A DNA stretch of 64,000 bases from Escherichia coli (GCA_902500125.1 GCA_902500125.1_4132.1), one strand, 5' to 3'. Positions 31,724 through 54,652 are shown, numbered from the stretch's first letter. Made by a program: numbers and translations. The notes: generated by a model not told the origin, from the letters alone.

Positions 31724-31724
31724 T

Positions 31725-34947: not shown

Positions 34948-34972
34948 TTGCACGGGGATAGTACTTTATAAT
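34948..34972 (+). promoter_or_regulatory. putative weak promoter (TTGCAC ... TATAAT, short spacer)
   Basis: ATTGCACGGGGATAGTACTTTATAATAG; spacing is non-canonical. Confidence 0.3.
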
Positions 34973-40167: not shown

Positions 40168-40186
40168 AATTATTATCACAGTACTA

Positions 40187-40215
40187 TTGACATAGATTGA
40201 TAGTACTGGCATAAT
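40187..40215 (+). promoter_or_regulatory. class-2 promoter AGTACTATTGACATAGATTGATAGTACTGGCATAAT (flanking inverted AGTACTAT/ATAGTACT)
   Basis: TTGACA-N17-CATAAT; same block at 40481, 43338 and 50987. Confidence 0.55.
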
Positions 40216-40248
40216 AGATTTTATCAAGACAACTAAGAGGAAACAATA

Positions 40249-40461
40249 ATGGCTATCATCACAAAAATCAAAGTAAACAAATCACTGGTTAAGCTGGAAG
40301 AAGTGAAAGAAGGTTATAAAGTATCGTGGTGCGGCATGTATCGGATTTTTACAGATGTTGACGATGCAATCAATTACTACACTGACACGGTAAAAAACTT
40401 TGTTCGTGCTGATGTGGTTATGGCAGTGGCAACACACAAAGCATCGAAAGAAAGTAAGTAA
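40249..40461 (+). CDS. hypothetical early protein (70 aa)
   Basis: RBS CTAAGAGGAAACAATAATG. Confidence 0.6.
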   Translation: MAIITKIKVNKSLVKLEEVKEGYKVSWCGMYRIFTDVDDAINYYTDTVKNFVRADVVMAVATHKASKESK

Positions 40462-40480
40462 AAATATTATCACAGTACTA

Positions 40481-40509
40481 TTGACATAGTTTGATAGTAC
40501 TGGCATAAT
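40481..40509 (+). promoter_or_regulatory. class-2 promoter (duplicate of 40187 block)
   Basis: About 80 bp duplicated almost exactly, including the downstream RBS region. Confidence 0.55.
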
Positions 40510-40542
40510 AGATTTTATCAAGACAACTAAGAGGAAATTAAA

Positions 40543-40887
40543 ATGGCTAATATCAACACTATCGCAAAACAAAATATCAACCTGTCTTCTGTTGAAGTTG
40601 TACATATTGCCGCTCGGCGTTGGTTCCAGGCTTCATATGGTAACACTTATTTCTCTTTAAGTGTAGACGTAGAAATTGATGGTAATTTTATTGAAGTAGT
40701 AAACGTGCCGTTCCAATATGGATACGGGGATCACTTTGACACTGTAGCAATGGAAGAATTTAGCAAGGTTATTAATATGGAAGATAAAGAGTTTTTACGC
40801 GGTTCTTATCTTTCCCGTTTTTGCCGTGACAATAATATCACTGTTTACAGTTCGGTAACTGATGTTAAACGCAAAAAAGATCTTTAA
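40543..40887 (+). CDS. hypothetical early protein (114 aa); paralog of 46523..46846
   Basis: Shared NTY..S and C-terminal VKRKKD[LM]. Confidence 0.6.
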   Translation: MANINTIAKQNINLSSVEVVHIAARRWFQASYGNTYFSLSVDVEIDGNFIEVVNVPFQYGYGDHFDTVAMEEFSKVINMEDKEFLRGSYLSRFCRDNNITVYSSVTDVKRKKDL

Positions 40888-40967
40888 TTAGCTTTACTTT
40901 ATGCAGATACTTTGATATAGTGTCTGCATAGGGGAAAGAAATTAAATTAACTTAAGAGGATCGTATA

Positions 40968-41237
40968 ATGAAAAATATCAGTACTTTAATCGATGCAGGT
41001 ACACATGTTCGGCGGTCTATGGTTGCAACCAGTACTACAAAACAAGTAGCGAGCGGTTATCTTGTATTTGTGCACGATGGTAAACTCCTGGAACGTTCAA
41101 TCAATTTTGATGTTAAAAACAATTGCCGTTTTATTATCTTTCGCCGTGAACAATATAAGATCGACATTCCAGCGAAGCCCATTAGCGGTGCGTACAATGT
41201 GCAATCATTGTTTGAGCGTCAACCATACACCTATTAA
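40968..41237 (+). CDS. hypothetical protein (89 aa)
   Basis: RBS TAAGAGGATCGTATAATG. Confidence 0.55.
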   Translation: MKNISTLIDAGTHVRRSMVATSTTKQVASGYLVFVHDGKLLERSINFDVKNNCRFIIFRREQYKIDIPAKPISGAYNVQSLFERQPYTY

Positions 41238-41288
41238 TCAAAACATCGTTAGCGGTCGATTCAGGCCGCTTATATTGGGGATTATACC

Positions 41289-41561
41289 ATGAACGTTAAT
41301 CAAGTACTGAATGAGATCGAAAGCATCATTAAACCGATGAAGCGTACTGATGCTATGTTAACACCGGAAGAATGCCGCCTTTATGAGCGTTACAGCGTCG
41401 AACAAGTCCAGGCAATGGCTATGGCTACCCCAGCCGTTAAACCGCCTGAGAATGCGTTACAGGACGTTACAGGGGATTATATCATCAATCCAGTACTAGG
41501 GAAGATGGCTGCAATCACCGAAGATCAACAAGACTACTTAAGCCAGTACTTAAAAGGTTAA
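41289..41561 (+). CDS. hypothetical protein (90 aa)
   Basis: ORF track; RBS TGGGGATTATACCATG. Confidence 0.55.
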   Translation: MNVNQVLNEIESIIKPMKRTDAMLTPEECRLYERYSVEQVQAMAMATPAVKPPENALQDVTGDYIINPVLGKMAAITEDQQDYLSQYLKG

Positions 41562-41566
41562 TTAAT

Positions 41567-41776
41567 ATGCTTACTGTACAGGATAAGATCGACATCTTAA
41601 AGGTTAATATGTATGTGATTGATGCCGTACCTGGTAAAGTATTTGCATACGATGACACTACTGTAAGCGATTTCTACTATAGCCAGGCCGTGGGGGATCT
41701 TTCTGTACAGTCGGTTATTGAAAACGTAGTTAATGCAGCGTATGAGCATTTACTTTCAAATAGTACTTGCAATTAG
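41567..41776 (+). CDS. hypothetical protein (69 aa)
   Basis: ORF track; its 3' end overlaps the next promoter. Confidence 0.5.
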   Translation: MLTVQDKIDILKVNMYVIDAVPGKVFAYDDTTVSDFYYSQAVGDLSVQSVIENVVNAAYEHLLSNSTCN

Positions 41777-41826
41777 TTTTTAAACGCGTATAATGTTTTA
41801 CATGAAGGGGAGAAATGATTCTCCCC
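41767..41826 (+). promoter_or_regulatory. early cassette promoter + leader hairpin GGGGAGAAATGATTCTCCCC
   Basis: TTGCAA-N16-TATAAT. Confidence 0.6.
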
Positions 41827-41845
41827 ACTAATTAAGGAATATGAA

Positions 41846-41992
41846 ATGAAAGCATCAAAAAAGAGTAATACTAAGAAAGCACGTTCACCTTTCGCTGGGG
41901 TATTCCCTTTACGTTTCGTTGATGAAGTAGTTTCCTACCCGCCGGGCCTTACTCCTGAGATGGTAGAAAGTTTGCGTAAATCTAAAAAATAG
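41846..41992 (+). CDS. small basic protein (48 aa)
   Basis: RBS TTAAGGAATATGAAATG; below the track cutoff. Confidence 0.4.
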   Translation: MKASKKSNTKKARSPFAGVFPLRFVDEVVSYPPGLTPEMVESLRKSKK

Positions 41993-41995
41993 TAC

Positions 41996-42055
41996 TTGCA
42001 ATTAGTTTTTAGTACTGTATAATAGTTTACATGAAGGGGAGAAATGATTCTCCCC
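41996..42055 (+). promoter_or_regulatory. early cassette promoter + leader hairpin GGGGAGAAATGATTCTCCCC
   Basis: TTGCAA-N16-TGTATAAT; hairpin identical to the previous cassette. Confidence 0.6.
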
Positions 42056-42073
42056 AATAACAGGAGAAACAAA

Positions 42074-42226
42074 ATGAAACAATACAACGCTCGGTTTGAT
42101 GTTACTATCGGTAACGGCAAAGGTCAATTCTCTTTCAGTACTCGCAAAAGTTATACAGAAAACTTCCTGCGTAATTGTGCACTGACCGCCGCTCAAATTA
42201 AACATTATTTTCAGGCTAAAAAATGA
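42074..42226 (+). CDS. small hypothetical protein (50 aa)
   Basis: RBS ACAGGAGAAACAAAATG. Confidence 0.5.
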   Translation: MKQYNARFDVTIGNGKGQFSFSTRKSYTENFLRNCALTAAQIKHYFQAKK

Positions 42227-42312
42227 AATCATTAGCTTATTACAGTTCAGCGGTGATCGGTGCATTGATCGCGGCATTGTTAGTAACCTATCTATTCTTT
42301 ATGGTGATTTAA
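42223..42312 (+). CDS. 29-aa hydrophobic peptide
   Basis: ATGA-coupled; MKSLAYYSSAVIGALIAALLVTYLFFMVI. Confidence 0.3.
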   Translation: MKSLAYYSSAVIGALIAALLVTYLFFMVI

Positions 42313-42453
42313 ATGAATCCTAACGGTTTAATTTACAGTACTCCTAAAACGAAAGCAGATAAAGCGAAAGCACGTAAAGCGAAAGTAAAGGAGTACATTA
42401 AGCAAGGCATGACGCGAAAGGCCGCACTACTCAGAGTAAAGGCTGAAAAATAA
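42313..42453 (+). CDS. 46-aa basic peptide
   Basis: Starts right after the upstream stop; K/R-rich. Confidence 0.3.
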   Translation: MNPNGLIYSTPKTKADKAKARKAKVKEYIKQGMTRKAALLRVKAEK

Positions 42454-42461
42454 TTGAAAAA

Positions 42462-42492
42462 AGGGTTGACTCCGGTCAGTCCCTTTGCTATT
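42462..42492 (+). terminator. class T2 terminator/promoter element (AGGGTTGAC-TCCG-GTCAGTCCCTTTGCTATTAT)
   Basis: Hairpin followed by TTTG; TTGACT within the stem lies 17 nt from TATTAT. Confidence 0.65.
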
Positions 42493-42588
42493 ATATATAC
42501 ATACCAGCGATACACTGGCGGCCCATAGGGTGCACAAATGTATCTATTATATAAGTATTGAGTACTGAAAACTATTTTTAAAAAGTAC

Positions 42589-42647
42589 TTGCAAACTATC
42601 TCAATAAGCGTATAATGTTTTACATCGAAAGGGGAAACGGTTTCCCC
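42589..42647 (+). promoter_or_regulatory. early cassette promoter + leader hairpin GGGGAAACGGTTTCCCC
   Basis: TTGCAA-N16-TATAAT; preceded by intergenic element A. Confidence 0.6.
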
Positions 42648-42667
42648 TGGTAATAAGGAAACAAATC

Positions 42668-43009
42668 ATGACTATCTCAATTGCTCAATCTAACTTTGAA
42701 AATGAAATCATCGCCCAGGCACTGCGTTTAAATGATGGTCGGGCCGAAATTAATTACGGTTTCAATTCAGGCGGTTGTGAAAAATATCAGTACTTTGTAA
42801 CGGCTGATGGCGGTGTCCTGGGTATCAATACAGTTATTGTAAACATCCAAAAAATTAATTTCAATGATCCAGACGATAGCCAGTTTTACATCACGGGCGT
42901 AGACGTGAACTATGAGGATGACTCACTAACTGATGACTACACTGGTGAAACGTTAGAAAGTGCATACTGTGAAGATGATTATCAGTCCGGTCCAGAAGAT
43001 TTCGAATAA
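42668..43009 (+). CDS. acidic hypothetical protein (113 aa)
   Basis: RBS TAAGGAAACAAATCATG. Confidence 0.6.
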   Translation: MTISIAQSNFENEIIAQALRLNDGRAEINYGFNSGGCEKYQYFVTADGGVLGINTVIVNIQKINFNDPDDSQFYITGVDVNYEDDSLTDDYTGETLESAYCEDDYQSGPEDFE

Positions 43010-43024
43010 TATAAAAAAATAGTT

Positions 43025-43084
43025 TGACAATAGATTATAGTACTGTATAATAGTTTACATCAAGGGGAGAAAAACTTCTCCCCA
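43025..43084 (+). promoter_or_regulatory. early cassette promoter (TTGACA-N16-TGTATAAT) + hairpin GGGGAGAAAAACTTCTCCCC
   Basis: Consensus-like promoter. Confidence 0.65.
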
Positions 43085-43105
43085 CTAACAGAGAGAGAAA
43101 ACAAA

Positions 43106-43318
43106 ATGGCTAATATCTGCACTGTACTGAAAAATGCAAAACAAGTTTTATTTTCTGATCACGATCATTTAAACAAGGATATTACTGGCGTTCGGAATAT
43201 CAAAGATGTAAAAAGTGTTATGGGTATCTATTGCAATATGAAACGTGTTGGAACGTTCGGCGACAAAGTACTATACCAGGCAGGGGATTACAATTTTACA
43301 CTGACTATCATTAACTAA
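43106..43318 (+). CDS. hypothetical early protein (70 aa)
   Basis: RBS AGAGAGAGAAAACAAAATG. Confidence 0.55.
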   Translation: MANICTVLKNAKQVLFSDHDHLNKDITGVRNIKDVKSVMGIYCNMKRVGTFGDKVLYQAGDYNFTLTIIN

Positions 43319-43337
43319 AAATATATTACCAGTACTA

Positions 43338-43365
43338 TTGACATAGTTTGATAGTACTGTATAAT
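43338..43365 (+). promoter_or_regulatory. class-2 promoter (AGTACTATTGACATAGTTTGATAGTACTGTATAAT)
   Basis: TTGACA-N16-TGTATAAT. Confidence 0.55.
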
Positions 43366-43409
43366 AAGTTTTATAAACAGTAGTTAACTTAACCTAAGAG
43401 AGAAATAAA

Positions 43410-43553
43410 ATGATCGCACTGGATTCATTCATCGACGCAGTACTGGCAAAAACTGGCGAGGATCTGACCGCAGAACAATACGCGATGATCGAGCAATGTC
43501 AGCAAGACGGTAAATCGGTGAAAGATACTGTTAAGATTATCCGCAAGATGTAA
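43410..43553 (+). CDS. small acidic protein (47 aa)
   Basis: RBS TAAGAGAGAAATAAAATG; below the track cutoff. Confidence 0.4.
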   Translation: MIALDSFIDAVLAKTGEDLTAEQYAMIEQCQQDGKSVKDTVKIIRKM

Positions 43554-43560
43554 TATTATA

Positions 43561-43590
43561 GCCCACTGGTCAACGCTGGTGGGCTTTAAT
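43561..43590 (+). terminator. terminator-like hairpin AGCCCACTGG-TCAACG-CTGGTGGGCT
   Basis: 10-bp stem; weak T-tract (TTTAATCC). Confidence 0.45.
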
Positions 43591-43652
43591 CCTTTACCCT
43601 ATACAATGCCAGTACTAAACCGTTTATCTCGTTAGAATGCGTTACAGGACGT

Positions 43653-43856
43653 TTGACAATGATTAGCATGAAATCAGTACAAAAACAAATAGAAACATTA
43701 TCAAAAATTAAACGTAAACAGTACTCGTTAGAATATACAATCAATGGTAACTATCATCTAATGAAAGAGAATAATTTTATTGTCATTGATGAATCATTGC
43801 AAATCATTAGTATAGTACTGAAAGCATTAATCAATGACAGAAAAAAATTAAAATAA
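43653..43856 (+). CDS. hypothetical protein (67 aa)
   Basis: ORF track; weak RBS; AT-rich. Confidence 0.35.
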   Translation: MTMISMKSVQKQIETLSKIKRKQYSLEYTINGNYHLMKENNFIVIDESLQIISIVLKALINDRKKLK

Positions 43857-43860
43857 TCTA

Positions 43861-43889
43861 TTGACAATATCATCCAGTACTGGCATAAT
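43861..43889 (+). promoter_or_regulatory. promoter TTGACA-N17-CATAAT with ~295-nt leader
   Basis: TTGACAATATCATCCAGTACTGGCATAAT; the leader holds element A and a cluster of GATCAA/TGATCA motifs. Confidence 0.55.
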
Positions 43890-44185
43890 ACTTACATCAA
43901 GACGAGAACGTCACTAACCCATAGGGTGCACAAATGTAACTATATAATATCGATCAATAAATGATCAAAAAAGTACTGGATCAATTTAACATAAGGAGTA
44001 TAATTCTGATCAATTCTTGATCAAAGGCAATATACGCAGTTGAATTTATATAGACATTACAAAGGCGTTACTATCCGTGGTAATGCTGGTGGATATGTAG
44101 TATCATATGGTTTGAATAAGATTAGCACTAGTAGTATTATTGTAGCATTACAGTACTATAGTATTTTTATAATGAGGTTAAAATA

Positions 44186-44443
44186 ATGGCAGTAGGATAC
44201 GCGAAAGACGGGGCCGAACAAGACGAGATTCACGCAGTGATTCAGGCCGCCGTTAACCACGCTAGAAAGCAAATTAACGCACAAAGAGAATCACTGGTAC
44301 ATTGCCTCGACTGCGGCGATAAAATCCCTGAGAATCGACGCCAGGCCGTTATAGGGTGCATGTATTGTATTACTTGCCAGGAGGATCATGATAGTACTTT
44401 TAAAAGAGATCCGCGTAATTGTTGGCATAGATCTATGAGATAA
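44186..44443 (+). CDS. DksA/TraR-family C4 zinc-finger protein
   Basis: HCLDCGDKIPENRRQAVIGCMYCITCQ (C-x2-C...C-x2-C with a P-x-x-RR motif); RBS TGAGGTTAAAATAATG. Confidence 0.75.
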   Translation: MAVGYAKDGAEQDEIHAVIQAAVNHARKQINAQRESLVHCLDCGDKIPENRRQAVIGCMYCITCQEDHDSTFKRDPRNCWHRSMR

Positions 44444-44450
44444 AAAGTAA

Positions 44451-44478
44451 TTGACAGTACTGAAAGATAGTGTATAAT
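44451..44478 (+). promoter_or_regulatory. promoter TTGACA-N16-TGTATAAT
   Basis: TTGACAGTACTGAAAGATAGTGTATAATG. Confidence 0.6.
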
Positions 44479-44507
44479 GTTTTATATCTTAACTGAGGAT
44501 AGTAATC

Positions 44508-44864
44508 ATGGGAATACAACATATCACGCGTACTACTGACAATGGAGAGATCACTGGTTATCAGGTACAGGGCAAAGTAGCACAATTGCAGTACTGGTTT
44601 GTTAAACGTGGAATCATTGCACCGGATCTTGATTATGACCGTGTAGCGTTTATTGATTCTCTTTATGTTGATCCTGATAGTCGGGGCAATGGTGAAGGTA
44701 ACGAATTAATGAATGCCTTTATCGATGCCGCCGATGATTCAGATTGTATCATCTTAGAATGCGATACGGGAGAAGATAACGCCTTTAATCTTAAAGAATG
44801 GTACGAAGGTTTCGGATTCGAGGTATTGATAGATAGTGAATATCCTATCATGATTTTATCATAG
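44508..44864 (+). CDS. small GNAT-family acetyltransferase-like protein (118 aa)
   Basis: VDPDSRGNGEGNELMNAF (acetyl-CoA motif A-like R/Q-x-x-G-x-G) and ...KEWYEGFGFE; RBS TGAGGATAGTAATCATG. Confidence 0.5.
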   Translation: MGIQHITRTTDNGEITGYQVQGKVAQLQYWFVKRGIIAPDLDYDRVAFIDSLYVDPDSRGNGEGNELMNAFIDAADDSDCIILECDTGEDNAFNLKEWYEGFGFEVLIDSEYPIMILS

Positions 44865-44867
44865 TAC

Positions 44868-44924
44868 TTGCATTTAGTTTTCAGTACTGTTATAGTACTT
44901 GCATCAAGGGGAAACATCTTCCCC
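44868..44924 (+). promoter_or_regulatory. early cassette promoter (TTGCAT...TATAGT) + hairpin GGGGAAACATCTTCCCC
   Basis: -10 non-consensus. Confidence 0.45.
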
Positions 44925-44942
44925 TACTAAGAGGAAATAAAA

Positions 44943-45131
44943 ATGGAAAACTTATCAAGTATTTTAGTACAAGATGATTTCGGTAATCCTGGAAGTGCTA
45001 TCATTGTTCGGGGCAATAAAGCAACGTTTGTTATTGCTGGTGGACCCGTACAGCGTAGCATTAAAAATAATGCTGTTACCATTAATAATGTACGCTATCG
45101 CTTAGATAAAGAATTAATTCATAAACTGTAA
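44943..45131 (+). CDS. hypothetical early protein (62 aa)
   Basis: RBS TAAGAGGAAATAAAAATG. Confidence 0.55.
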   Translation: MENLSSILVQDDFGNPGSAIIVRGNKATFVIAGGPVQRSIKNNAVTINNVRYRLDKELIHKL

Positions 45132-45138
45132 AAAAGTA

Positions 45139-45200
45139 CTGGATAATAGATTATAGTACTGTATAATAGTTTACATGAAGGGGAGAAATGATTCTCCCCA
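45139..45200 (+). promoter_or_regulatory. early cassette promoter (weak -35, TGTATAAT) + hairpin GGGGAGAAATGATTCTCCCC
   Basis: Extended -10; third occurrence of this hairpin sequence. Confidence 0.5.
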
Positions 45201-45216
45201 CTAAGAGGAAAGAAAA

Positions 45217-45429
45217 ATGCAAGGTCAACTAATCGTTCGTAAATGGTCTGATACTAACGAAAAACCGTGGGATGTACAATACATCGCCCCCAATGGTGAA
45301 TCCAGATATCAACCAGGTGTAACGCATAGTACTGAGCAATTCGCCGCCGCTCATCGCGAACGTCTGTTACAATCAATGCAGCAAGGTTTCGGTGAAAAAT
45401 TCATTCAGGATCATTGGCTGAAAGATTAA
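45217..45429 (+). CDS. hypothetical early protein (70 aa)
   Basis: RBS TAAGAGGAAAGAAAAATG. Confidence 0.55.
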   Translation: MQGQLIVRKWSDTNEKPWDVQYIAPNGESRYQPGVTHSTEQFAAAHRERLLQSMQQGFGEKFIQDHWLKD

Positions 45430-45436
45430 AAAGTAC

Positions 45437-45494
45437 TTGCACTGTACTGAATAAAGTGTATAATGTTTTATATCGGAAGGGGAATAGTTCCCCT
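45437..45494 (+). promoter_or_regulatory. early cassette promoter + hairpin GGGGAATAGTTCCCC
   Basis: TTGCAC-N16-TGTATAAT. Confidence 0.6.
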
Positions 45495-45515
45495 CCTAAC
45501 AAAGAGGAAAGTATA

Positions 45516-45689
45516 ATGGTCCAGGTAGAATTAACAGTACTGAAAGATCTGTTTTATCGGATTGGTACTACTGGCGAATATCCGAAGGGTGATAATGCAA
45601 AACTTTACGTATCACTCGACTTATGGCAACGCGAACAATTAGCAACGGCCTGGCGTAAAGGCAAAGCAGATAGCGAGGTGAAAGCATGA
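45516..45689 (+). CDS. small hypothetical protein (57 aa)
   Basis: RBS AAAGAGGAAAGTATAATG after the hairpin. Confidence 0.5.
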   Translation: MVQVELTVLKDLFYRIGTTGEYPKGDNAKLYVSLDLWQREQLATAWRKGKADSEVKA

Positions 45690-45835
45690 AAGAATTCTTA
45701 TTTGAAGTAGTGTTTCAAGGTGTCGGTAGTAACCAACTGATTCGCTCAAGTGGTTATAATGTTAACCAGGCATGGAATAACATTAAACAAATGTACCCGA
45801 ACGCTATCACCTATCGCAACCCGAAAGAAGTTTAA
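45686..45835 (+). CDS. small hypothetical protein (49 aa)
   Basis: ATGA-coupled ORF MKEFLFEVVFQG...; below the track cutoff. Confidence 0.35.
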   Translation: MKEFLFEVVFQGVGSNQLIRSSGYNVNQAWNNIKQMYPNAITYRNPKEV

Positions 45836-45848
45836 AAATAATTGAAAA

Positions 45849-45880
45849 AGGGATTGACTCCGGTCAGTCCCTTTGCTATT
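45849..45880 (+). terminator. class T2 terminator/promoter element
   Basis: AAAAAGGGATTGACTCCGGTCAGTCCCTTTGCTATTATATACGCATAG. Confidence 0.65.
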
Positions 45881-45982
45881 ATATACGCATAGAAACAAAT
45901 TAGCCCACCGGGTGCATAAATGTATCTATTGTTTGCTGGTGGCTAGTACTATCAAGTACTGAAAACTATTTTTAAAAAGTAC

Positions 45983-46010
45983 TTGCATTGTAATTAGAAT
46001 CAAGTATAAT
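45983..46010 (+). promoter_or_regulatory. early promoter (TTGCAT-N16-TATAAT), upstream of tandem pair
   Basis: Part of a ~170-bp block duplicated from 35823-35990. Confidence 0.6.
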
Positions 46011-46020
46011 GTTTTACATC

Positions 46021-46100
46021 AGGACGGGGAACGAAACAAGTAACCCCGTTAAGTAGTCCAGGAGTAAGACATACGAAAAACTCCCCTGATAAAATAGTTT
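46021..46100 (+). ncRNA. structured leader/candidate small RNA (copy 2)
   Basis: Copy of 35881-35960 with stem-compatible substitutions (ACGGGGAACGAAACAAGTAACCCCGTT). Confidence 0.35.
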
Positions 46101-46126
46101 GACAATAGAAAGTAAACGAGTATAAT
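46099..46126 (+). promoter_or_regulatory. promoter TTGACA-N16-TATAAT (downstream of pair)
   Basis: TTGACAATAGAAAGTAAACGAGTATAATAC. Confidence 0.6.
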
Positions 46127-46159
46127 ACTTACATCAACCACTGATAAGGAAACATTAAA

Positions 46160-46435
46160 ATGCGGATTCTACTGACAGCTAACGAAATCGAACAAGTACT
46201 GACTACTAACCTGGAACAATGGAAACGTGATGCAGATATCCAGGCGGTTCAATGGCTTAACGATAAGTTAACGCCGGATGACTTAAGCAAGATTGTAGAT
46301 CCTCAATTCTACGAAGATATTCACGACACGGCTTTAAGCGTCGAGGATGTACTTGATAAGCATTACATTAATACCGATTTACAGGTTTACGGGCGTAAAA
46401 ACTTTATCACTATTCACGACATTTACAATACTTAA
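46160..46435 (+). CDS. hypothetical early protein (91 aa)
   Basis: RBS TAAGGAAACATTAAAATG. Confidence 0.6.
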   Translation: MRILLTANEIEQVLTTNLEQWKRDADIQAVQWLNDKLTPDDLSKIVDPQFYEDIHDTALSVEDVLDKHYINTDLQVYGRKNFITIHDIYNT

Positions 46436-46438
46436 GTA

Positions 46439-46497
46439 TTGACAAAGTATCTTAGTACTGTATAATAGTTTACATCAAGGCGGGGAAATGGTTCCCC
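46439..46497 (+). promoter_or_regulatory. early cassette promoter (TTGACA-N16-TGTATAAT) + hairpin CGGGGAAATGGTTCCCCT
   Basis: Consensus promoter. Confidence 0.65.
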
Positions 46498-46522
46498 TCC
46501 TAACAAAGAGAGAGAAATAAAA

Positions 46523-46846
46523 ATGGCTATGATCCTTACCCAGAAAGTGGAATTGAAAATTGTAACCTCCTTTGACATTAAAGTTAATCGCTGGACTGAT
46601 CGGAACGGCAATACTTACCACTCTTGCTACGTGTCTGCGTTAATTGGCGACCGCTGGGAAGACCTGGGACACGAAACCTTTACATACGGTTACGGTACGC
46701 AAGGCGAATACACTGGTTTGGAGATCATTAAAGAAACCGTTATAGGTTTCAACCCGAAAGAAAAAGTTATGCACCGCATCGAAAAAGAGATTAACAAAGA
46801 AATAACAGTTCGCTACTACGATGTAAAACGTAAGAAAGACATGTAA
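46523..46846 (+). CDS. hypothetical early protein (107 aa); paralog of 40543
   Basis: RBS AGAGAGAGAAATAAAAATG. Confidence 0.6.
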   Translation: MAMILTQKVELKIVTSFDIKVNRWTDRNGNTYHSCYVSALIGDRWEDLGHETFTYGYGTQGEYTGLEIIKETVIGFNPKEKVMHRIEKEINKEITVRYYDVKRKKDM

Positions 46847-46868
46847 TAGAATCCATTTAAAGTACTAT

Positions 46869-46897
46869 TTGACATTGCCCAGATAGTACTTTATAAT
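46869..46897 (+). promoter_or_regulatory. promoter TTGACA-N17-TATAAT
   Basis: TTGACATTGCCCAGATAGTACTTTATAAT. Confidence 0.6.
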
Positions 46898-46941
46898 AGA
46901 CTCTAACTTGTAGTACTAACTCAACTAATAGGATGTATACC

Positions 46942-47337
46942 ATGATTACTAAATTCTACGCTACCCGTGAAGCTGCCCGTATTGTTGCACGCGAGGAAGG
47001 AGCAGCATTTAAAGACATGGGAACGACAGCACCGAAAGGTCAACGCTGGGCCGTACAGTTCAAAGAAATCTCTGATATTGTGAATTCACCTGAGCCAGTA
47101 CTAACAGCAGCAGAACTAAAACGAGCGGATATGCTGGCGGCAATACTTGACGCACAAGATGAGTTTATCGCTGATTCTGATATCAAAGTACAGGTAAACC
47201 ACACCGCATGGACTCACGCGGATCACCTGGCAAACCTTAAGCGTCCAAGTGAACTGATTCGCAACCAGAAAGAGATCCGACATGATCGTAAGGGTAATCG
47301 TGTAACAGTATACAGTAAACGCCGCCAGGTTATCTAA
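46942..47337 (+). CDS. hypothetical protein (~131 aa); paralog of 35010
   Basis: MITKFYATREAARIVAREEGAAFKDMG...DRKGNRVTVY; RBS TAGGATGTATACCATG. Confidence 0.55.
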   Translation: MITKFYATREAARIVAREEGAAFKDMGTTAPKGQRWAVQFKEISDIVNSPEPVLTAAELKRADMLAAILDAQDEFIADSDIKVQVNHTAWTHADHLANLKRPSELIRNQKEIRHDRKGNRVTVYSKRRQVI

Positions 47338-47359
47338 TAACTTGCAGTACTAACAACAC

Positions 47360-47385
47360 GGCGGGATCAGTTCCCGCCTTTTTTA
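47360..47385 (+). terminator. rho-independent terminator (GGCGGGA-TCAG-TTCCCGCC + T6)
   Basis: Hairpin followed by TTTTTTA. Confidence 0.7.
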
Positions 47386-47398
47386 TAGGACAAACAAA

Positions 47399-47653
47399 AT
47401 GATTAAGGTTCAACTATATAAAGATAACATCTTACGGGTACACTATAAAGCACCGAAGAGAATCATCACAAAGGCCGTACAGCTTGCTAATGAGTTTATT
47501 AATGGTAACCTATTACCAAGGAAGTTAAGCAACGGGAAACTGCGTGTAATCGACGTGGACACTAACAACAGGATAGTAATCGAGAACACAGGAAAAATAA
47601 ACCTTTATGAGCATCAACAATACAATAAGAAAATAAAACTAATATCACGTTGA
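47399..47653 (+). CDS. hypothetical protein (84 aa)
   Basis: RBS ATAGGACAAACAAAATG. Confidence 0.55.
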   Translation: MIKVQLYKDNILRVHYKAPKRIITKAVQLANEFINGNLLPRKLSNGKLRVIDVDTNNRIVIENTGKINLYEHQQYNKKIKLISR

Positions 47654-47679
47654 CAGTACTCAAATGTTTTAGTATTATG
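47650..47679 (+). promoter_or_regulatory. promoter TTGACA-N18-TATTAT (duplicated block, copy 1)
   Basis: TTGACAGTACTCAAATGTTTTAGTATTATG. Confidence 0.5.
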
Positions 47680-47706
47680 TACACATACCAACACGGGAGA
47701 AACAAA

Positions 47707-47925
47707 ATGAAATTATCTAAAATCGAAAAGAAAACTATTGATGAAGCAGTTAAGCACGGTTATACCTTTCGTAATGATTCACATTTTACCAATTTTCAAC
47801 AGGGGTATCGTACTATTAAAAAACTAATTGACAAAGGTTTATTAGTTGAAGTCAATAATGGGAACGGTATCGAGTATCAGCCAACCCAAGACGCATTATC
47901 TTTAAAGAAATATAATATTATCTAA
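47707..47925 (+). CDS. hypothetical protein (72 aa)
   Basis: RBS ACGGGAGAAACAAAATG. Confidence 0.55.
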   Translation: MKLSKIEKKTIDEAVKHGYTFRNDSHFTNFQQGYRTIKKLIDKGLLVEVNNGNGIEYQPTQDALSLKKYNII

Positions 47926-47953
47926 TTGACAGTACTCAAATGTTTTAGTACTA
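47926..47953 (+). promoter_or_regulatory. promoter (duplicated block, copy 2)
   Basis: TTGACAGTACTCAAATGTTTTAGTACTAT. Confidence 0.45.
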
Positions 47954-47983
47954 TATGTACATACCAACACGGGGAAAAACAAA

Positions 47984-48226
47984 ATGATTACTTTAGAAAA
48001 ACGTATCAAAGAAACTACATCGCTGGTGGAATTGTTAACAGTACTCAAATGTAAAACAACACCATTCAGCACGCCGGACTTTATTAATATGGTTGATGTT
48101 AATGGTCGCTATCGTATCACGGTCGAACAAGGAGCGGCGAAAGTATTCAGTACTAAAAACACGAAGGAAGTGATCCACGCCGTTAATGTTAAAAAAGTAG
48201 TTGCCATTGATAGTAAAGTACTGTAA
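47984..48226 (+). CDS. hypothetical protein (80 aa)
   Basis: RBS ACGGGGAAAAACAAAATG. Confidence 0.55.
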   Translation: MITLEKRIKETTSLVELLTVLKCKTTPFSTPDFINMVDVNGRYRITVEQGAAKVFSTKNTKEVIHAVNVKKVVAIDSKVL

Positions 48227-48257
48227 TATAGTTTCATTAACTCAAGGAGAACATGCA

Positions 48258-48842
48258 ATGCGTAATTATACTAAATTCATCCGTACACTGTCAGAAATGG
48301 AAACCAACAAAGAGATCCTTTCAGCTTGTCGGTTAGCTGGCCTGGAGATCATCGGTGCTGGTTCTTCCCGTATAGTTTTCGCTTTAAATGATCGGTTAGT
48401 GATTAAGGTCGCGAATTGTGATGCGGGTGTAGAACAAAATGAAACTGAATGTAAGGTATGGAATTTTTTAGACTATGACCGCCCTCAGTTGAAACAGTAC
48501 TTTGCAAAGGTGCATATGCATTTATGCGATCCTGATAATATGTTTATCGTTATGGATCGGTTGAGTACTGCAAGCAAAGGTAGTGTGAAGCACGTAAACG
48601 CGTGCAATGAATTAAAGTACAATATTAAACGTAATGCAATCGAACGCCAGCACCGCTTTGCTGATGCACTACAACACGTCGATGATACATTATCAACACT
48701 AACGATAAGAGATATCAGAAAACAGAATATCGGCCAGGATCGTAATGGCCTTATTAAAGTACTTGATTACGGTTTAACCTGCAATATCTGGAATCAGTAC
48801 TATAAAAAGCGTGATGTGGCAGCAAGTAAGGTAACACGATAA
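48258..48842 (+). CDS. small protein-kinase-like protein (~194 aa)
   Basis: RBS AAGGAGAACATGCAATG; IIGAGSSRIVF (G-loop), VIKVA, IRDIRKQNIG (catalytic-loop-like), KVLDYG (DFG-like). Confidence 0.6.
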   Translation: MRNYTKFIRTLSEMETNKEILSACRLAGLEIIGAGSSRIVFALNDRLVIKVANCDAGVEQNETECKVWNFLDYDRPQLKQYFAKVHMHLCDPDNMFIVMDRLSTASKGSVKHVNACNELKYNIKRNAIERQHRFADALQHVDDTLSTLTIRDIRKQNIGQDRNGLIKVLDYGLTCNIWNQYYKKRDVAASKVTR

Positions 48843-48855
48843 AAAAGATTAAAAA

Positions 48856-48890
48856 AGGGATTGACTCCGGTCAGTCCCTTTGCTATTATA
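48856..48890 (+). terminator. class T2 terminator/promoter element
   Basis: AAAAAAGGGATTGACTCCGGTCAGTCCCTTTGCTATTATATA. Confidence 0.65.
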
Positions 48891-48983
48891 TATCCATTGA
48901 GAGATAACTCACTGACCCATAGGGTGCGGAAGTGTATCTATTATATAAGTATTCAGTACTGAAAACTATTTTTTAAAAAGTAC

Positions 48984-49046
48984 TTGCATTGTACTTAGAA
49001 TCAAGTATAATGTTTTATATCGAGAGGGGGAAATGGTTCTCCCTGG
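48984..49046 (+). promoter_or_regulatory. early cassette promoter + hairpin GGGGGAAATGGTTCTCCC
   Basis: TTGCAT-N16-TATAAT; preceded by element A. Confidence 0.6.
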
Positions 49047-49065
49047 TATATTAAGGAATAAAATC

Positions 49066-49287
49066 ATGACTACAATGACTTGCATTTACGCTTCCAATCG
49101 TCTGAATGATGCGGCCTTTAATGTTGATTCAGAATATCAATGTTATCGGGATGAAAATAAAAAAGTTTTTGTAGTTGATAATAATGGTTTCCATATTGAA
49201 TTACAATCCGGCTTCACTGGTGTTGATGGTAAATCAGTATGGGGCGTACAGGATGATAAAGGTACATATCATTTTAAACGTAATTAA
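49066..49287 (+). CDS. hypothetical early protein (73 aa)
   Basis: RBS TTAAGGAATAAAATCATG. Confidence 0.55.
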   Translation: MTTMTCIYASNRLNDAAFNVDSEYQCYRDENKKVFVVDNNGFHIELQSGFTGVDGKSVWGVQDDKGTYHFKRN

Positions 49288-49291
49288 GTAT

Positions 49292-49353
49292 TTGACAAAG
49301 TATCTTAGTACTGTATAATAGTTTACATCAAGGGGAGAATAGTTCTCCCCGAT
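49292..49353 (+). promoter_or_regulatory. early cassette promoter (TTGACA-N16-TGTATAAT) + hairpin GGGGAGAATAGTTCTCCCC
   Basis: Consensus promoter. Confidence 0.65.
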
Positions 49354-49371
49354 ACTAAAAGGAATAAAATC

Positions 49372-49776
49372 ATGACTACTACTAATCTTGCTCGGAATAT
49401 CGCCAACGATAAAAATCATGCTGCAATGGTCGCTGGTTACATTGAAGCTATGCAATTCAGTACTGTACATAATGATAACGGCGATTACCTGGAAGATTAT
49501 GAGTTATCTGATGAAGCACGTCAAGCGGCGGTGATTGCATGTTCTCGCTTCATTGAGAAACACGGTAATGATCTGGAAGTAGTTCGCGGTATGTTTATTG
49601 ATTACGGTTATGAGCAAGCTGGTCATGATCTGTTCCTTACCCGCGAAGGTCACGGAACTGGTTTTTGGGATCGTGGTTTAGGTCACTATGGCGATGTATT
49701 CACGAAGTACTGCGAAGAAATCAACGTTTGCGATCCCTATGTAGGCGATGATAACTTAATCTATATGGGCGAATAA
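49372..49776 (+). CDS. hypothetical early protein (134 aa)
   Basis: RBS AAAAGGAATAAAATCATG. Confidence 0.6.
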   Translation: MTTTNLARNIANDKNHAAMVAGYIEAMQFSTVHNDNGDYLEDYELSDEARQAAVIACSRFIEKHGNDLEVVRGMFIDYGYEQAGHDLFLTREGHGTGFWDRGLGHYGDVFTKYCEEINVCDPYVGDDNLIYMGE

Positions 49777-49782
49777 AAGTAT

Positions 49783-49843
49783 TTGACAAAGTATATCAGT
49801 ACTGTATAATAGTTTACATCAAGGGGAGAATAGTTCTCCCCAA
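49783..49843 (+). promoter_or_regulatory. early cassette promoter (TTGACA-N16-TGTATAAT) + hairpin GGGGAGAATAGTTCTCCCC
   Basis: Near-duplicate of the 49292 cassette. Confidence 0.65.
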
Positions 49844-49863
49844 TACTAAAAGGAAACAAAATT

Positions 49864-50136
49864 ATGTCCAGCTACTCCGCTACTATGATCATTAAAGATA
49901 TGAACGGTAATCCTACTTCTGCTGGTGGATCATTTGGAAATATTAACTTAGATGGGCGGTTATCCATGCAATCAGCCATCGATGCAGCGAAAGAAGTTTT
50001 TAAGAATGAATGTACTGTTAGTAAGCTGGATTATATGGGTTTCGCTATCGAGAAAACTACTCGTTTTGTGAACTACAAAAATCCACTGATGATTGATACT
50101 AACCTGAAAGCTAACGAAGTGGGGTACTTATTATGA
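49864..50136 (+). CDS. hypothetical early protein (90 aa)
   Basis: RBS AAAAGGAAACAAAATTATG. Confidence 0.6.
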   Translation: MSSYSATMIIKDMNGNPTSAGGSFGNINLDGRLSMQSAIDAAKEVFKNECTVSKLDYMGFAIEKTTRFVNYKNPLMIDTNLKANEVGYLL

Positions 50137-50324
50137 CAGTAGAAGAAGTAAAAAAAGTACTGGCAGTACTACGATATCATAATCATTGCAAGGTGAAGAA
50201 TGATCCTGATTATCTTGATTCATCCCTGGAGGAAGACACCTTGAACGCTATAAGCCATATGCAGACATTAGCAAAGCGTATGACTGAAAAGAACATGCCG
50301 GACTATATCGGAAATAAAATTTAA
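50133..50324 (+). CDS. hypothetical protein (63 aa)
   Basis: ATGA-coupled. Confidence 0.5.
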   Translation: MTVEEVKKVLAVLRYHNHCKVKNDPDYLDSSLEEDTLNAISHMQTLAKRMTEKNMPDYIGNKI

Positions 50325-50331
50325 AAAGTAC

Positions 50332-50393
50332 TTGCATTGTAGTTAGATTAACGTATAATGTTTTATATCGAGAGGGGGAAATGGTTTCCCCTC
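50332..50393 (+). promoter_or_regulatory. early cassette promoter + hairpin GGGGGAAATGGTTTCCCC
   Basis: TTGCAT-N16-TATAAT. Confidence 0.6.
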
Positions 50394-50411
50394 AAGTCCA
50401 GGAGATACACA

Positions 50412-50675
50412 ATGAACACTATCGAAATCACTATCAATGCACACGTATACGACAACGTAGTACTGCAAACTACTATGACCGCTAATGATACCAGTACTTT
50501 GCGGAATACTGTTATTAGTGCCGTATGTGCTGCAATCGGTGATGTATCCCTGGAAAATGCAGAACATATCAACAACGGTTTCACTATGTGCAAGCGTGAT
50601 AACGCAAAACATATCATCGTGGAAGGTTACGGCGGTGTAGAATTTAATGTTTATATGAAAAAAGTACTTGCATAA
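50412..50675 (+). CDS. hypothetical early protein (87 aa)
   Basis: RBS CCAGGAGATACACAATG. Confidence 0.55.
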   Translation: MNTIEITINAHVYDNVVLQTTMTANDTSTLRNTVISAVCAAIGDVSLENAEHINNGFTMCKRDNAKHIIVEGYGGVEFNVYMKKVLA

Positions 50676-50724
50676 TAACTAAAACAAAGTATAATGTTTT
50701 GCATAGGGGGAGATATCCTCCCCC
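50668..50724 (+). promoter_or_regulatory. early cassette promoter + hairpin GGGGGAGATATCCTCCCCC
   Basis: TTGCAT-N16-TATAAT; overlaps the 3' end of the upstream gene. Confidence 0.55.
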
Positions 50725-50742
50725 ACTAAAAGGAGTAATAAA

Positions 50743-50967
50743 ATGGCTAACTTTGATGAACTGATGCGGGAAGTAGCTAACCTGGCAGAAGAGAAGAAAT
50801 CATTCGATTCTATCTATAACACCGCTCACCGTGATTCAGTACTGGCATGTAACCAGGATCAAAAAGATGAACTAATCGCCACCTATCATGAAGCATGGAA
50901 GTACTACCGACAATGGGAGAAAGAAGAAAGTGAGTCTACCATTGACGGCCTCAATAATCTAATCTAA
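50743..50967 (+). CDS. hypothetical early protein (74 aa)
   Basis: RBS AAAGGAGTAATAAAATG. Confidence 0.6.
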   Translation: MANFDELMREVANLAEEKKSFDSIYNTAHRDSVLACNQDQKDELIATYHEAWKYYRQWEKEESESTIDGLNNLI

Positions 50968-50986
50968 AAGTTTTATTTCAGTACTA

Positions 50987-51016
50987 TTGACATAGCTTGA
51001 TAGTACTGATGTAATA
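50987..51016 (+). promoter_or_regulatory. class-2 promoter (AGTACTATTGACATAGCTTGATAGTACTGATGTAAT)
   Basis: TTGACA-N17-TGTAAT. Confidence 0.5.
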
Positions 51017-51043: not shown

Positions 51044-51301
51044 ATGGATCAGTTCACACAATATCGGGTAAATCCTCAAGCTATGGCCTACGTAGAAGAC
51101 CATAAAACGTTACCAGTACTGCAACCAGTTAAAGGCCATATCTATCGTGCAATGTCGTGGTGTGCGGCCCAGGATGGCTATAAAACCGTAGCCGTTGGTA
51201 TGTACTGCGGTAATGGTGAATGGTTTGATCCAAATAATCCGGTATCCATTGACAGTACTGAAAAAATGAAATGGGCCGACTACATCGAAGATATTTCATA
51301 A
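51044..51301 (+). CDS. hypothetical protein (85 aa)
   Basis: RBS AAGGGGAAACATAATG. Confidence 0.55.
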   Translation: MDQFTQYRVNPQAMAYVEDHKTLPVLQPVKGHIYRAMSWCAAQDGYKTVAVGMYCGNGEWFDPNNPVSIDSTEKMKWADYIEDIS

Positions 51302-51592: not shown

Positions 51593-51608
51593 CAAAAAAG
51601 AATAAAAA

Positions 51609-51640
51609 AGGGATTGACTCCGGTCAGTCCCTTTGCTATT
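51609..51640 (+). terminator. class T2 terminator/promoter element
   Basis: AAAAAGGGATTGACTCCGGTCAGTCCCTTTGCTATTATATACGCATAG. Confidence 0.65.
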
Positions 51641-52938: not shown

Positions 52939-53129
52939 TGCGTAAAAGGATTTAGTACTGAATCATAAAAAAGTCAAGGCATTTTTAAAAATCAGCGTTA
53001 AAAAAATGCATAGGTAATCCCTTGACTTTTATGAATAAAAAGGGATTGGACTATGGCAAAATGCGTAGGGGGCTTAACTGCGGGTAACCTTAGCGACTTC
53101 GATAAAGGGGTATTACTAATAAAATGTTA

Positions 53130-53158
53130 TTGACTTTTTATACGAATCGTATATTATA
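53130..53158 (+). promoter_or_regulatory. promoter TTGACT-N17-TATTAT for array 2
   Basis: TTGACTTTTTATACGAATCGTATATTATAGG about 30 nt before the first array gene. Confidence 0.5.
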
Positions 53159-53187
53159 GGATTGATATTATTTTTAATGGAGTCCCT

Positions 53188-53385
53188 ATGCGTATTTTAA
53201 CTCAAGCAGAACATCACGAAAGACTTATCAATAACATGGCATATATCCTACATATGTCACATATCCGTGGTATTGCATATAAGCGTGAATTGGTTATGGC
53301 ACTATTCATTGGAACTAACTTTCAGGAAAGGTATGTCAAGGATTGGATTTCATATTTAATTGAAGATATAACGGGTAAACTATGA
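53188..53385 (+). CDS. array-2 small paralog (LGTN[YF]QE motif)
   Basis: RBS-like GGAGTCCCTATG; ...FIGTNFQERYVKDWISYLIEDITGKL. Confidence 0.55.
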   Translation: MRILTQAEHHERLINNMAYILHMSHIRGIAYKRELVMALFIGTNFQERYVKDWISYLIEDITGKL

Positions 53386-53589
53386 AAATTATCACACAAT
53401 TTCAACTATATAATCTTATGATCGAATATAGAAAGAATATATATATATACCAGATGAGTTATCTAGGGATGAAAAAAAGTTTATTCTATCGGAGTGGTGG
53501 ATGATGGCTGGACTGGGAACCAACTTCCAAGAAAGTTTTGTTAATGATTGGATTTTACATTTAATAAAAGATATAAAGAGTAAACAATG
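53382..53589 (+). pseudogene. array-2 paralog with frameshift at a (TA)n tract
   Basis: MKIITQF... then AATATATATATATAC run (~53438-53449); the C-terminal family motif WWMMAGLGTNFQESFVNDWILHLIKDIKSKQ is in another frame. Confidence 0.45.
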
Positions 53590-53796
53590 AAAACTATAAC
53601 ACGAACCCAATCATTAGGTCTTATCTTGAAATACATGGACTTAATGTTGGATATCAGCAAAGACCTTCCTAAAACTGAAATCCAAGTTGCAAGAGCAGAG
53701 ATCCGCATGTTGGCTGTACTGAACACAAACCATCAGGAAGATTATGTTGAAGAATGGATTCGATTTTTAATAGAAGATATAAAGAGTAAATTATGA
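53587..53796 (+). CDS. array-2 small paralog
   Basis: ATGA overlap; LNTNHQEDYVEEWIRFLIEDIKSKL. Confidence 0.6.
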   Translation: MKTITRTQSLGLILKYMDLMLDISKDLPKTEIQVARAEIRMLAVLNTNHQEDYVEEWIRFLIEDIKSKL

Positions 53797-54008
53797 TTAT
53801 TATAGAAAACTCATATCAATATACTGAACGCATCGCTGCCAGACAACTTGAAATCCTCATAATATACGAAGAGACTTCTGATTTAAACTTAGCCGAGGTA
53901 TTGGAAAATGATATACTATTGGGTGCATTCTTAGGAACAGACTATCAGAAGTATTATGAGGAAAAGTATTTGTCATCTCTTGAGAAATATATCAGGAGCA
54001 AATTATGA
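53793..54008 (+). CDS. array-2 small paralog
   Basis: ATGA overlap; FLGTDYQKYYEEKY. Confidence 0.6.
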   Translation: MIIIENSYQYTERIAARQLEILIIYEETSDLNLAEVLENDILLGAFLGTDYQKYYEEKYLSSLEKYIRSKL

Positions 54009-54217
54009 TTTTTTTAACACCAGAAGAATATAAGAAACGTTTCAATTCCGCACAGGGTGAAATCTTACTTATATACCTTTCAAATGCAGACCTTAACTTA
54101 TCAAGGGTATTAGAAAAAGATTTACTTATGGGTGCATTCCTTGATACAGACTTTCAGGTGTATTATGTAGGGGAATACTTAATTGCACTTCAGAATTATA
54201 TCAGGAGTAAACTATGA
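54005..54217 (+). CDS. array-2 small paralog
   Basis: ATGA overlap; FLDTDFQVYYVGEY. Confidence 0.6.
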   Translation: MIFLTPEEYKKRFNSAQGEILLIYLSNADLNLSRVLEKDLLMGAFLDTDFQVYYVGEYLIALQNYIRSKL

Positions 54218-54441
54218 AACATTTAAGTAATTCCGAGAAGAATAAAATTATCATTGCTGCAATAAACAAATATTTTACACTTCCTCACAAAGAAGGTTTA
54301 TGTATAAGAGAACACAGGATAAACACCACCGATATACGCATGATGGCTGTACTGGGGACGAACTTCCAGGAAGAGTATGTTATTGCACACATAGTTGCAC
54401 TCAAGAATTACATTATGGACAAATGTAATGAACATCATTAA
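54214..54441 (+). CDS. array-2 small paralog
   Basis: ATGA overlap; VLGTNFQEEYVIAH. Confidence 0.6.
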   Translation: MKHLSNSEKNKIIIAAINKYFTLPHKEGLCIREHRINTTDIRMMAVLGTNFQEEYVIAHIVALKNYIMDKCNEHH

Positions 54442-54652
54442 TAACTTTGAATACGAGGCCCGTGCTAAGAGTGCCAGAAAAAAAGAGAACACCATTTACT
54501 TCACTATGATGTACTTACAATGGACTGAAATTGAAGAAAAGGTTGCTGAAGTATGGATGTTGGAATTCATGGGGACGCAGTATCAGAATAGGTTTGCGGG
54601 TGAGTATATCAATGTTCTTATGAAACAAATAGAAAGAAAGGAAAAGAACTAA
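54428..54652 (+). CDS. array-2 small paralog
   Basis: Internal Met; FMGTQYQNRFAGEY. Confidence 0.5.
   Translation: MNIINNFEYEARAKSARKKENTIYFTMMYLQWTEIEEKVAEVWMLEFMGTQYQNRFAGEYINVLMKQIERKEKN

Follow-up and report, generated by a model that had tools for sequence, protein, structure and literature searches.

The proteins p6 of phi29 and TF1 of SPO1 bind along the viral genome, prefer early promoters in its terminal regions and switch off early transcription. In T4-type phages, composite promoter/stem-loop cassettes (PeSL) mediate modular shuffling (PMC4122927). The DNA described here, a stretch of 64,000 nucleotides (the window), is by its sequence part of an Asteriusvirus-like E. coli jumbo phage; its early region carries four near-identical 28-nt promoter elements, each with two copies of the hexamer AGTACT. 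Like PeSL (Arbiol et al. 2010; Comeau et al. 2014, PMC4122927), these are near-consensus sigma-70 early promoters repeated, within a variable region, before small genes without known function, and the repeats bound single-gene insertions and deletions between close relatives. Unlike PeSL, the 28-mer copies have neither a G+C-rich stem-loop nor a U-tract, their sole dyad being the AGTACT box pair; PeSL as described have no genome-wide hexamer built in, and the phages concerned here are RaK2-like jumbo phages, not Straboviridae. The larger result is a clade-wide AGTACT code: the hexamer is, as judged from the genomes compared, a selected, two-fold-symmetric DNA-level element across enterobacterial RaK2-like phages.

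Excess of AGTACT: 278 sites were counted in the window (positions 1–64000; about 21 expected), spread over coding DNA, in every frame, and non-coding DNA; AGTACT was by far the most enriched hexamer, many other 6-bp palindromes being absent, and CAGTACTG was found 65 times (0.9 expected). The extended AGTACT site is written as TCAGTACTGA and TTTTCAGTACTGAAAA in its oligonucleotide/duplex forms. Phage EC22.5-2 (350 kb) contained 913 AGTACT (101 expected), the density reaching a peak of ~7 per kb in the terminal repeat and lying at 1–4 per kb elsewhere. Enrichment of 8–10-fold was found in RaK2 (Klebsiella; 92, expected 8.8), GAP32 (Cronobacter; 96, expected 11.2) and fHe-Yen9-03 (Yersinia; 85, expected 10.9); no enrichment was observed in Pseudomonas phage PA5oct (1, expected 8.8), T4 (3, expected 4.7) or E. 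coli K-12 (3, expected 4.8). A general trait of A+T-rich coliphages or of the T4 superfamily was discarded since T4 and PA5oct are not enriched. The hexamer occurs about once per 400 bp in the phage and about once per 17 kb in E. coli, the phage density being 40–100 times that of the host. The exact hexamer was 9-fold enriched and its one-mismatch variants 0.6–2.2-fold, which points to strict hexamer specificity.

Many other 6-bp palindromes were strongly avoided: in EC22.5-2, GGTACC 0 (33 expected) and CGTACG 0 (18 expected); CCATGG, CAGCTG, CTCGAG, AGGCCT and AGCGCT were each found 0 times in the window, unlike AGTACT. Two islands of the window (52960–57868 and 60310–64000) had zero AGTACT, and GTAC was also rare there; the first begins nearly at the end of the terminal-repeat region, both consist of tightly packed overlapping genes of ~70 aa, and the same gaps are seen in fEgEco12 and EC22.5-2.

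Selection on the word at the DNA level: coding AGTACT sites occupied all three frames (76/43/57), non-coding density being about twice that in coding DNA. Ser-Thr pairs were written AGT-ACT in 359 of 676 cases (106 expected), ACT-AGT being depleted; tyrosine was encoded by TAC in 78% of cases within the context xAG_Txx, where it completes the word, vs 27% elsewhere. An artefact of codon usage or of a peptide motif was rejected because the word occurs in every frame and codon usage shifts with context. On alignment of the window with EC22.5-2 (95% identity), 92.9% of 210 aligned sites were intact vs 82.4% of control hexamers of the same composition (n = 1,623); the differences comprised 15 losses and 15 gains, mostly by point changes, with three within deleted stretches. 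Spread by insertion of the hexamer was likewise rejected, the changes between genomes being mostly point substitutions and gains equalling losses. In orthologous genes across genera, 7 sites were conserved in position (of 31 in the first genome and 17 in EC22.5-2; 0.05 expected). The flanks of AGTACT were mirror-symmetric (T-rich, C, AGTACT, G, A-rich) with A/T phasing to ~10 bp; the symmetry persisted at 456 sites inside + strand genes, which speaks for recognition of duplex DNA with two-fold symmetry and against an RNA signal, and recognition at the RNA level was set aside as unlikely on this ground. Spacing of sites over the genome gave a weak excess at 20–24 bp, mostly derived from promoters; a genome-wide helical periodicity was discarded, this weak excess being its sole sign. 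The large excess, maintenance at synonymous sites and lineage specificity that characterize selected words of the Chi or uptake-sequence type were thus all found for AGTACT.

Four 28-mer copies: the consensus is AGTACTATTGACATAG[A/T/C]TTGATAGTACT, and the pattern AGTACTATTGACATAGNTTGATAGTACT was matched exactly 4 times in the window, always on the + strand (40180–40207, 40474–40501, 43331–43358 and 50980–51007), with no match in any of 100 dinucleotide-preserving shuffles; the variable base is A, T, T and C in copies 1–4, respectively. The near-identical repeats noticed in a preliminary description of this DNA were thus recovered; the positions given there, 40187, 40481, 43338 and 50987, are the first bases of TTGACA, 7 nt inside the 28-mer. 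Its 8-bp inverted repeat around the −35 hexamer became a perfect repeat of 9 bp (CAGTACTAT / ATAGTACTG) in all four copies when flanking C and G were included, with a −10 hexamer downstream in each, poor in copy 4. Copy 1 (40180–40215, +): distal AGTACT 40180–40185, −35 TTGACA 40187–40192, proximal AGTACT 40202–40207, extended −10 TGgCATAAT ending at 40215; copy 2 (40474–40509, +): boxes at 40474 and 40496, −35 40481–40486, −10 CATAAT 40504–40509; copy 3 (43331–43365, +): boxes at 43331 and 43353, −35 43338–43343, −10 TATAAT 43360–43365; copy 4 (50980–51015, +): boxes at 50980 and 51002, −35 50987–50992, weak −10 TGTAAT 51010–51015. The promoters read TTGACA-17-CATAAT with a TG extension in copies 1 and 2 (11 of 12 consensus positions), TTGACA-16-TATAAT in copy 3 (12 of 12) and TTGACA-17-TGTAAT in copy 4. 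The key A of position −11 is missing from copy 4, which failed the rule of the promoter scan. All have hexamers near TTGACA/TATAAT at 16–18 nt from each other, copy 4 being the weakest, and an ATG lies 40–60 nt downstream of every copy, with a ribosome binding site (RBS) of the GAGG/GGGG type; the four copies are predicted sigma-70-type promoters, each ahead of a small gene.

One box of each copy is 1 nt upstream of the −35 hexamer and the other 1–2 nt upstream of the −10; the two are 22 bp apart, i.e., about two helical turns, and should thus face the same side of the DNA. Copies 1 and 2 have ~95 bp in common, from the upstream stop codon through the RBS; copies 3 and 4 have little in common beyond the 28-mer and an A/T-rich upstream tract. 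Two diverged members were found. The fifth (46861–46897, +; dyad 46861–46890) is AGTACTAT-TTGACATTGCCCAG-ATAGTACT followed by TATAAT, with a box spacing of 24, and precedes gene 46933–47337 (phrog_8127); the sixth (34941–34972, +; dyad 34941–34965) is AGTACTAT-TGCACGGGG-ATAGTACT followed by TATAAT, with a spacing of 19 and a degenerate −35, and precedes 35010–35276 (phrog_8127), a paralogue of the gene behind the fifth. Both dyads have the same 8-bp arms as the four copies, the sixth keeping the arms with a diverged middle.

Promoter geometry across genera: the distance from AGTACT to a downstream TATAAT showed sharp peaks at 7 and 27–30, confined to the coding strand, in the window, EC22.5-2, RaK2, GAP32, a CBB-sized contig of 378 kb and a 366-kb contig. 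Among the strong + strand promoters of the repeat region (n = 36), at least 26 had a box and 8 had two; the offsets used were 7–8, 17–18 and 27–31, none being at 9–16, so that boxes lie directly against the −10 and against either edge of the −35. Pairs of boxes 16–24 bp apart numbered at least 17, and the four copies form the subclass with a consensus TTGACA and both boxes at 22 bp. In 11 distinct versions from four Asteriusvirus genomes and RaK2, C-AGTACT-A-TTGACA and GAT-AGTACT-G were invariant and the six middle bases all varied. A scan of viral contigs gave C-AGTACT-A-TTGACA-N6-GAT-AGTACT-G in RaK2 and in a 121Q-sized genome, and AGTACT-TTGACA-N10-AGTACT-T-TATAAT, with different flanks and a spacing of 22–23, in GAP32/CBB-like phages. 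The same boxes and spacing across lineages indicate that the conserved feature is the two boxes with their spacing; the 8–9-bp arms are an extension peculiar to the Asteriusvirus/RaK2 lineage.

The operator suggested in the preliminary description is accordingly retained in part: the dyad at the −35 is present, and its 9-bp arms, invariant in 11 versions from two genera around six free central bases, are selected in the manner of a protein-binding site, more strongly than the spacer; a restriction of the site to a regulated subset was not found. The separately regulated set of early genes proposed there finds no support, since each arm is an ordinary AGTACT box, of which there are 278 in the window and which at least 26 of the 36 strong promoters carry, and the downstream genes have no family in common.

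Surroundings of the copies: the region is 93–97% identical to E. coli jumbo phages of the Asteriusvirus type (fEgEco12, vB_Ec-M-J, G17, CMSTMSU), and 32398–53090 (+) matches the 20,993-bp direct terminal repeat of fEgEco12. It holds an array of ~55 small genes on the + strand, the majority each preceded by its own sigma-70 promoter, and 142 AGTACT sites (~7 per kb), with boxes at −19..−14, −29..−24 or −39..−34/−42..−37. The genes that follow the four copies, all on the + strand and of unknown function, belong to four different PHROG families: 40249–40461 (70 aa, phrog_35559), 40543–40887 (114 aa, phrog_6246), 43410–43553 (47 aa, phrog_34103) and 51044–51301 (85 aa, phrog_34861). Between copies 1 and 2 lies one gene that fEgEco12 does not have; where the window has copy 3 alone, fEgEco12 in turn has two copies flanking one extra gene; the breakpoints of these insertions and deletions fall inside the repeat. 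As in PeSL, a conserved early promoter thus recurs where variable single-gene modules begin and end, and the near-identity of the copies is to be read, from these alignments, as recombination between promoter cassettes and not as shared regulation of four related genes.

Other hairpins of the region: a repeated terminator hairpin AAAGGGATTGACTCCGGTCAGTCCCTTT with internal TTGACT and with TATTAT at promoter spacing was found at 42463–42482 (variant), 45847–45874, 48854–48881 and 51607–51634; these four copies of AAAGGG-ATTGACT...-CCCTTT followed by TATTAT form a composite terminator/promoter of the PeSL type and resemble the nt-1-type stem-loop consensus quoted in PMC4122927. A 5′-leader hairpin GGGGAGAA-N4-TTCTCCCC, just past the start region GTTTTACAT, is conserved behind most other promoters of the region (e.g., 41800–41835, 43060–43095, 45175–45210 and 49330–49365); the four 28-mer copies have no leader hairpin.

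The explanation tentatively preferred, at a probability judged to be a little under one half, is that of mobile early-promoter cassettes with two sites for an AGTACT-specific factor, most likely a repressor at promoters. The four copies would be one subfamily of such cassettes in the terminal-repeat (host-takeover) region. The box would be the core site of a putative dimeric factor, probably encoded by the phage and possibly packaged in the virion; a capsid inner body has been reported for phAPEC6 and 121Q and could accommodate a packaged DNA-binding protein. The factor would favour phage DNA, with an occupancy ~40–100 times denser than on that of the host; bound to the promoter boxes, which directly adjoin both sigma-70 hexamers, it would be in competition with RNA polymerase, and two-box promoters would be shut off most tightly and cooperatively as it accumulates. 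Repression is preferred to activation because of the box positions and the near-consensus promoters.

Several observations weigh against this reading. The box positions and the near-consensus promoters are the sole grounds for preferring repression to activation. The box spacing is inconstant (16, 19, 20, 22, 23, 24 bp; a 5-bp change within one paralogous promoter pair) and fits a rigid cooperative geometry poorly; many of the promoter copies are paralogous, and counts within a genome are hence not independent. Coding DNA of late genes is also ~5-fold enriched in AGTACT, which a repressor role alone does not explain. Pfam and PHROG scans of the ~55 terminal-repeat proteins recognised no DNA-binding domain and gave no candidate regulator; the domain matches were limited to a zinc finger of the DksA/TraR type, a GNAT acetyltransferase, a ParE-like toxin and, weakly, a kinase. 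The gene annotated as "transcriptional regulator" in phage Turkey5 had no family match, nor had the window gene at the same position (47677–47925). Adjoining that position, early gene 47399–47653 encodes a ParE-like toxin domain (PF24732, E = 4.6e-11).

Five other explanations were weighed. Modification of AGTACT, the ScaI/Eco255I recognition site, by a phage methyltransferase would, next to the −35 and −10, make early promoters differ between injected (fully methylated) and newly replicated DNA and, over the genome, label phage DNA as self for a reader protein or a nuclease. Strong enrichment of the exact hexamer alone, as for enzymes of the restriction-modification type, agrees with such an epigenetic mark, as does the purging of other 6-bp palindromes, next to which 900 unprotected ScaI-type sites would be a liability; DNA methyltransferases are encoded by these phages (this analysis; Sharanji and RaK2 papers). 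However, when an AGTACT-specific methyltransferase was sought, only two enzymes were found by a motif scan of open reading frames (ORFs) of at least 120 aa in EC22.5-2 (OR845138.1), a Dam-family N6-adenine enzyme (91151–91672, 173 aa, PF05869) and a C5-cytosine enzyme (307362–308222, 286 aa, PF00145); the RaK2 paper ascribes methylation to sites of the Dam/Dcm/CpG type, methylation by itself gives no reason for enrichment, and symmetric A/T-phased flanks to ~10 bp resemble a protein footprint, not an enzyme site, so that an epigenetic mark is considered unlikely. The probability is also low that the dyad has no regulatory role, PeSL-type cassettes having been spread and homogenised by recombination while boxes piled up intergenically under a genome-wide pressure. 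Single-gene insertions and deletions vs fEgEco12 are indeed bounded by repeats, promoter/stem-loop cassettes shuffle modules in T4-type phages (PMC4122927), and non-coding density exceeds coding density only ~2-fold; passive cassettes would, however, hardly give positions so sharp (7–8, 17–18 and 27–31, with none at 9–16), retained in genera whose promoter sequences otherwise differ, or arms invariant in two genera around six variable bases.

Direct contact of the boxes with host RNA polymerase, an UP-proximal-like element and a spacer/extended −10 element tuning promoter strength with no extra factor, is quite improbable: the boxes do abut both hexamers, ACTGg supplies the TG of the extended −10 in copies 1 and 2, and A-tracts lie upstream of the distal box, but the TG is one base out of register in the AGTACTGTATAAT promoters and is misplaced in most promoters, one palindrome serving two unrelated contact surfaces would be odd, and 739 coding sites are left unexplained. 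An RNA hairpin in read-through transcripts, acting as a terminator, insulator or processing site between cassettes, was predicted with 12–13 pairs, G-U among them (−12.5 to −14.2 kcal/mol, z-scores −4.0 to −5.1); it is A/U-rich, at ~−13 kcal/mol, and is followed not by a U-tract but by GGCATAATAG, and none of the 4 copies was called in the terminator scan as an intrinsic terminator (G+C-rich stem plus U-tract). Conservation in 121Q-like phages and RaK2 is limited to the 9-bp core, the extra pairs being lost; GAP32/CBB-like promoters retain the boxes with no extended complementarity; box position is fixed to the −35/−10 and not to the upstream stop codon; and the arms never vary, leaving no covariation to test. 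A role as RNA is thus very unlikely. The chances are equally slight that a host protein, e.g., the nucleoid-occlusion factor SlmA, binds the box and is titrated or activated by the phage. In its favour are the AGTACT core of the SlmA site GTGAGTACTCAC and the enrichment in the sampled Enterobacterales phages but not in Pseudomonas phage PA5oct; yet SlmA requires G1, T2, A4, G5 and a purine at position 3 (PMC3020112), whereas phage sites favour C at position 3 and lack G at position 1, GAGTACTC being the rarest flank combination (4 of 913). The relaxed pattern GT[GA]AG[TC][GA]CT[TC]AC had no match in the window or the 350-kb relative, though no more than ~0.8 would be expected by chance, and SlmA was rejected as reader for its flank requirements.

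A broader reading, considered possible and rather doubtful, is that AGTACT marks phage DNA as self, a dedicated reader telling phage from host DNA; such a reader might serve to coat, protect, compact or silence the genome of the phage, with the promoter boxes timing early transcription, as a sequence-based counterpart of the self-marking of T-even phages by base modification. Should the word separate phage from host DNA in this way, phages having neither modified bases nor a nucleus-like shell would possess a novel form of self-recognition. Many jumbo phages of the RaK2 group are being isolated for use in therapy, and their early genes are mostly without assigned function; no DNA word in these genomes seems to be under stronger selection than AGTACT, which shapes codon choice and survives palindrome removal, and its fixed positions at early promoters across four genera offer a concrete experimental handle. 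The motif is not mentioned in the searchable genome papers on fEgEco12, Sharanji, RaK2, CBB and phAPEC6, and literature searches for AGTACT or CAGTACTG with phage terms gave nothing relevant; the AGTACT excess together with the fixed promoter positions points to a DNA-recognition system that was not found described in the literature searched.

Other features of the window: the E. coli Chi sequence GCTGGTGG has 12 copies on the + strand and 4 on the − strand (~0.2 expected per strand, as estimated from base composition). Ten of the 12 + strand copies lie in the terminal-repeat region (32988, 39553, 43575, 44085, 45036, 45935, 48022, 49921, 51500 and 51722), those of the − strand are at 24700, 24958, 32976 and 39491, and the copies at 32976 and 32988 make a hairpin CCACCAGC...GCTGGTGG; the Chi copies may protect the linear genome ends from RecBCD. 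A − strand array (18000–27900) consists of paralogous genes of ~250–410 aa separated by terminators, whose stems are built from the AGTACT word, e.g., GCCAGTAC-AAA-GTACTGGC followed by a T-run. In the array of ~60–70-aa genes at 27900–32200, (A/G)GTACTA(AT) or AATACT stands directly before the ATG, replacing an obvious Shine-Dalgarno sequence; AGTACT density there is 8–10 per kb.

Comparison with described recognition systems: with lac and tet operators, lambda OR and LexA boxes the element has in common a dyad over the polymerase footprint with conserved arms and a free spacer; unlike in these, the half-site is itself a complete 6-bp palindrome, present ~900 times per genome and mostly intragenic. 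The SlmA-binding sequence (PMC3020112) is also palindromic, with an AGTACT core and in an enterobacterial host, but the flanking bases required by SlmA are absent or disfavoured in the phage. The mode of action proposed here would be analogous to that of phi29 p6 and SPO1 TF1, with arrays of sites ~20–24 bp apart; p6 and TF1 differ in reading bendability or modified bases and not a strict hexamer, and no HU-like or p6-like protein was identified in this phage. Chi, the DNA uptake sequences and GATC with Dam/SeqA are similar in their large excess, in maintenance at synonymous sites within genes and in being lineage-specific; unlike these, AGTACT is palindromic, and hence has no orientation, is viral, and is coupled to promoter positions.

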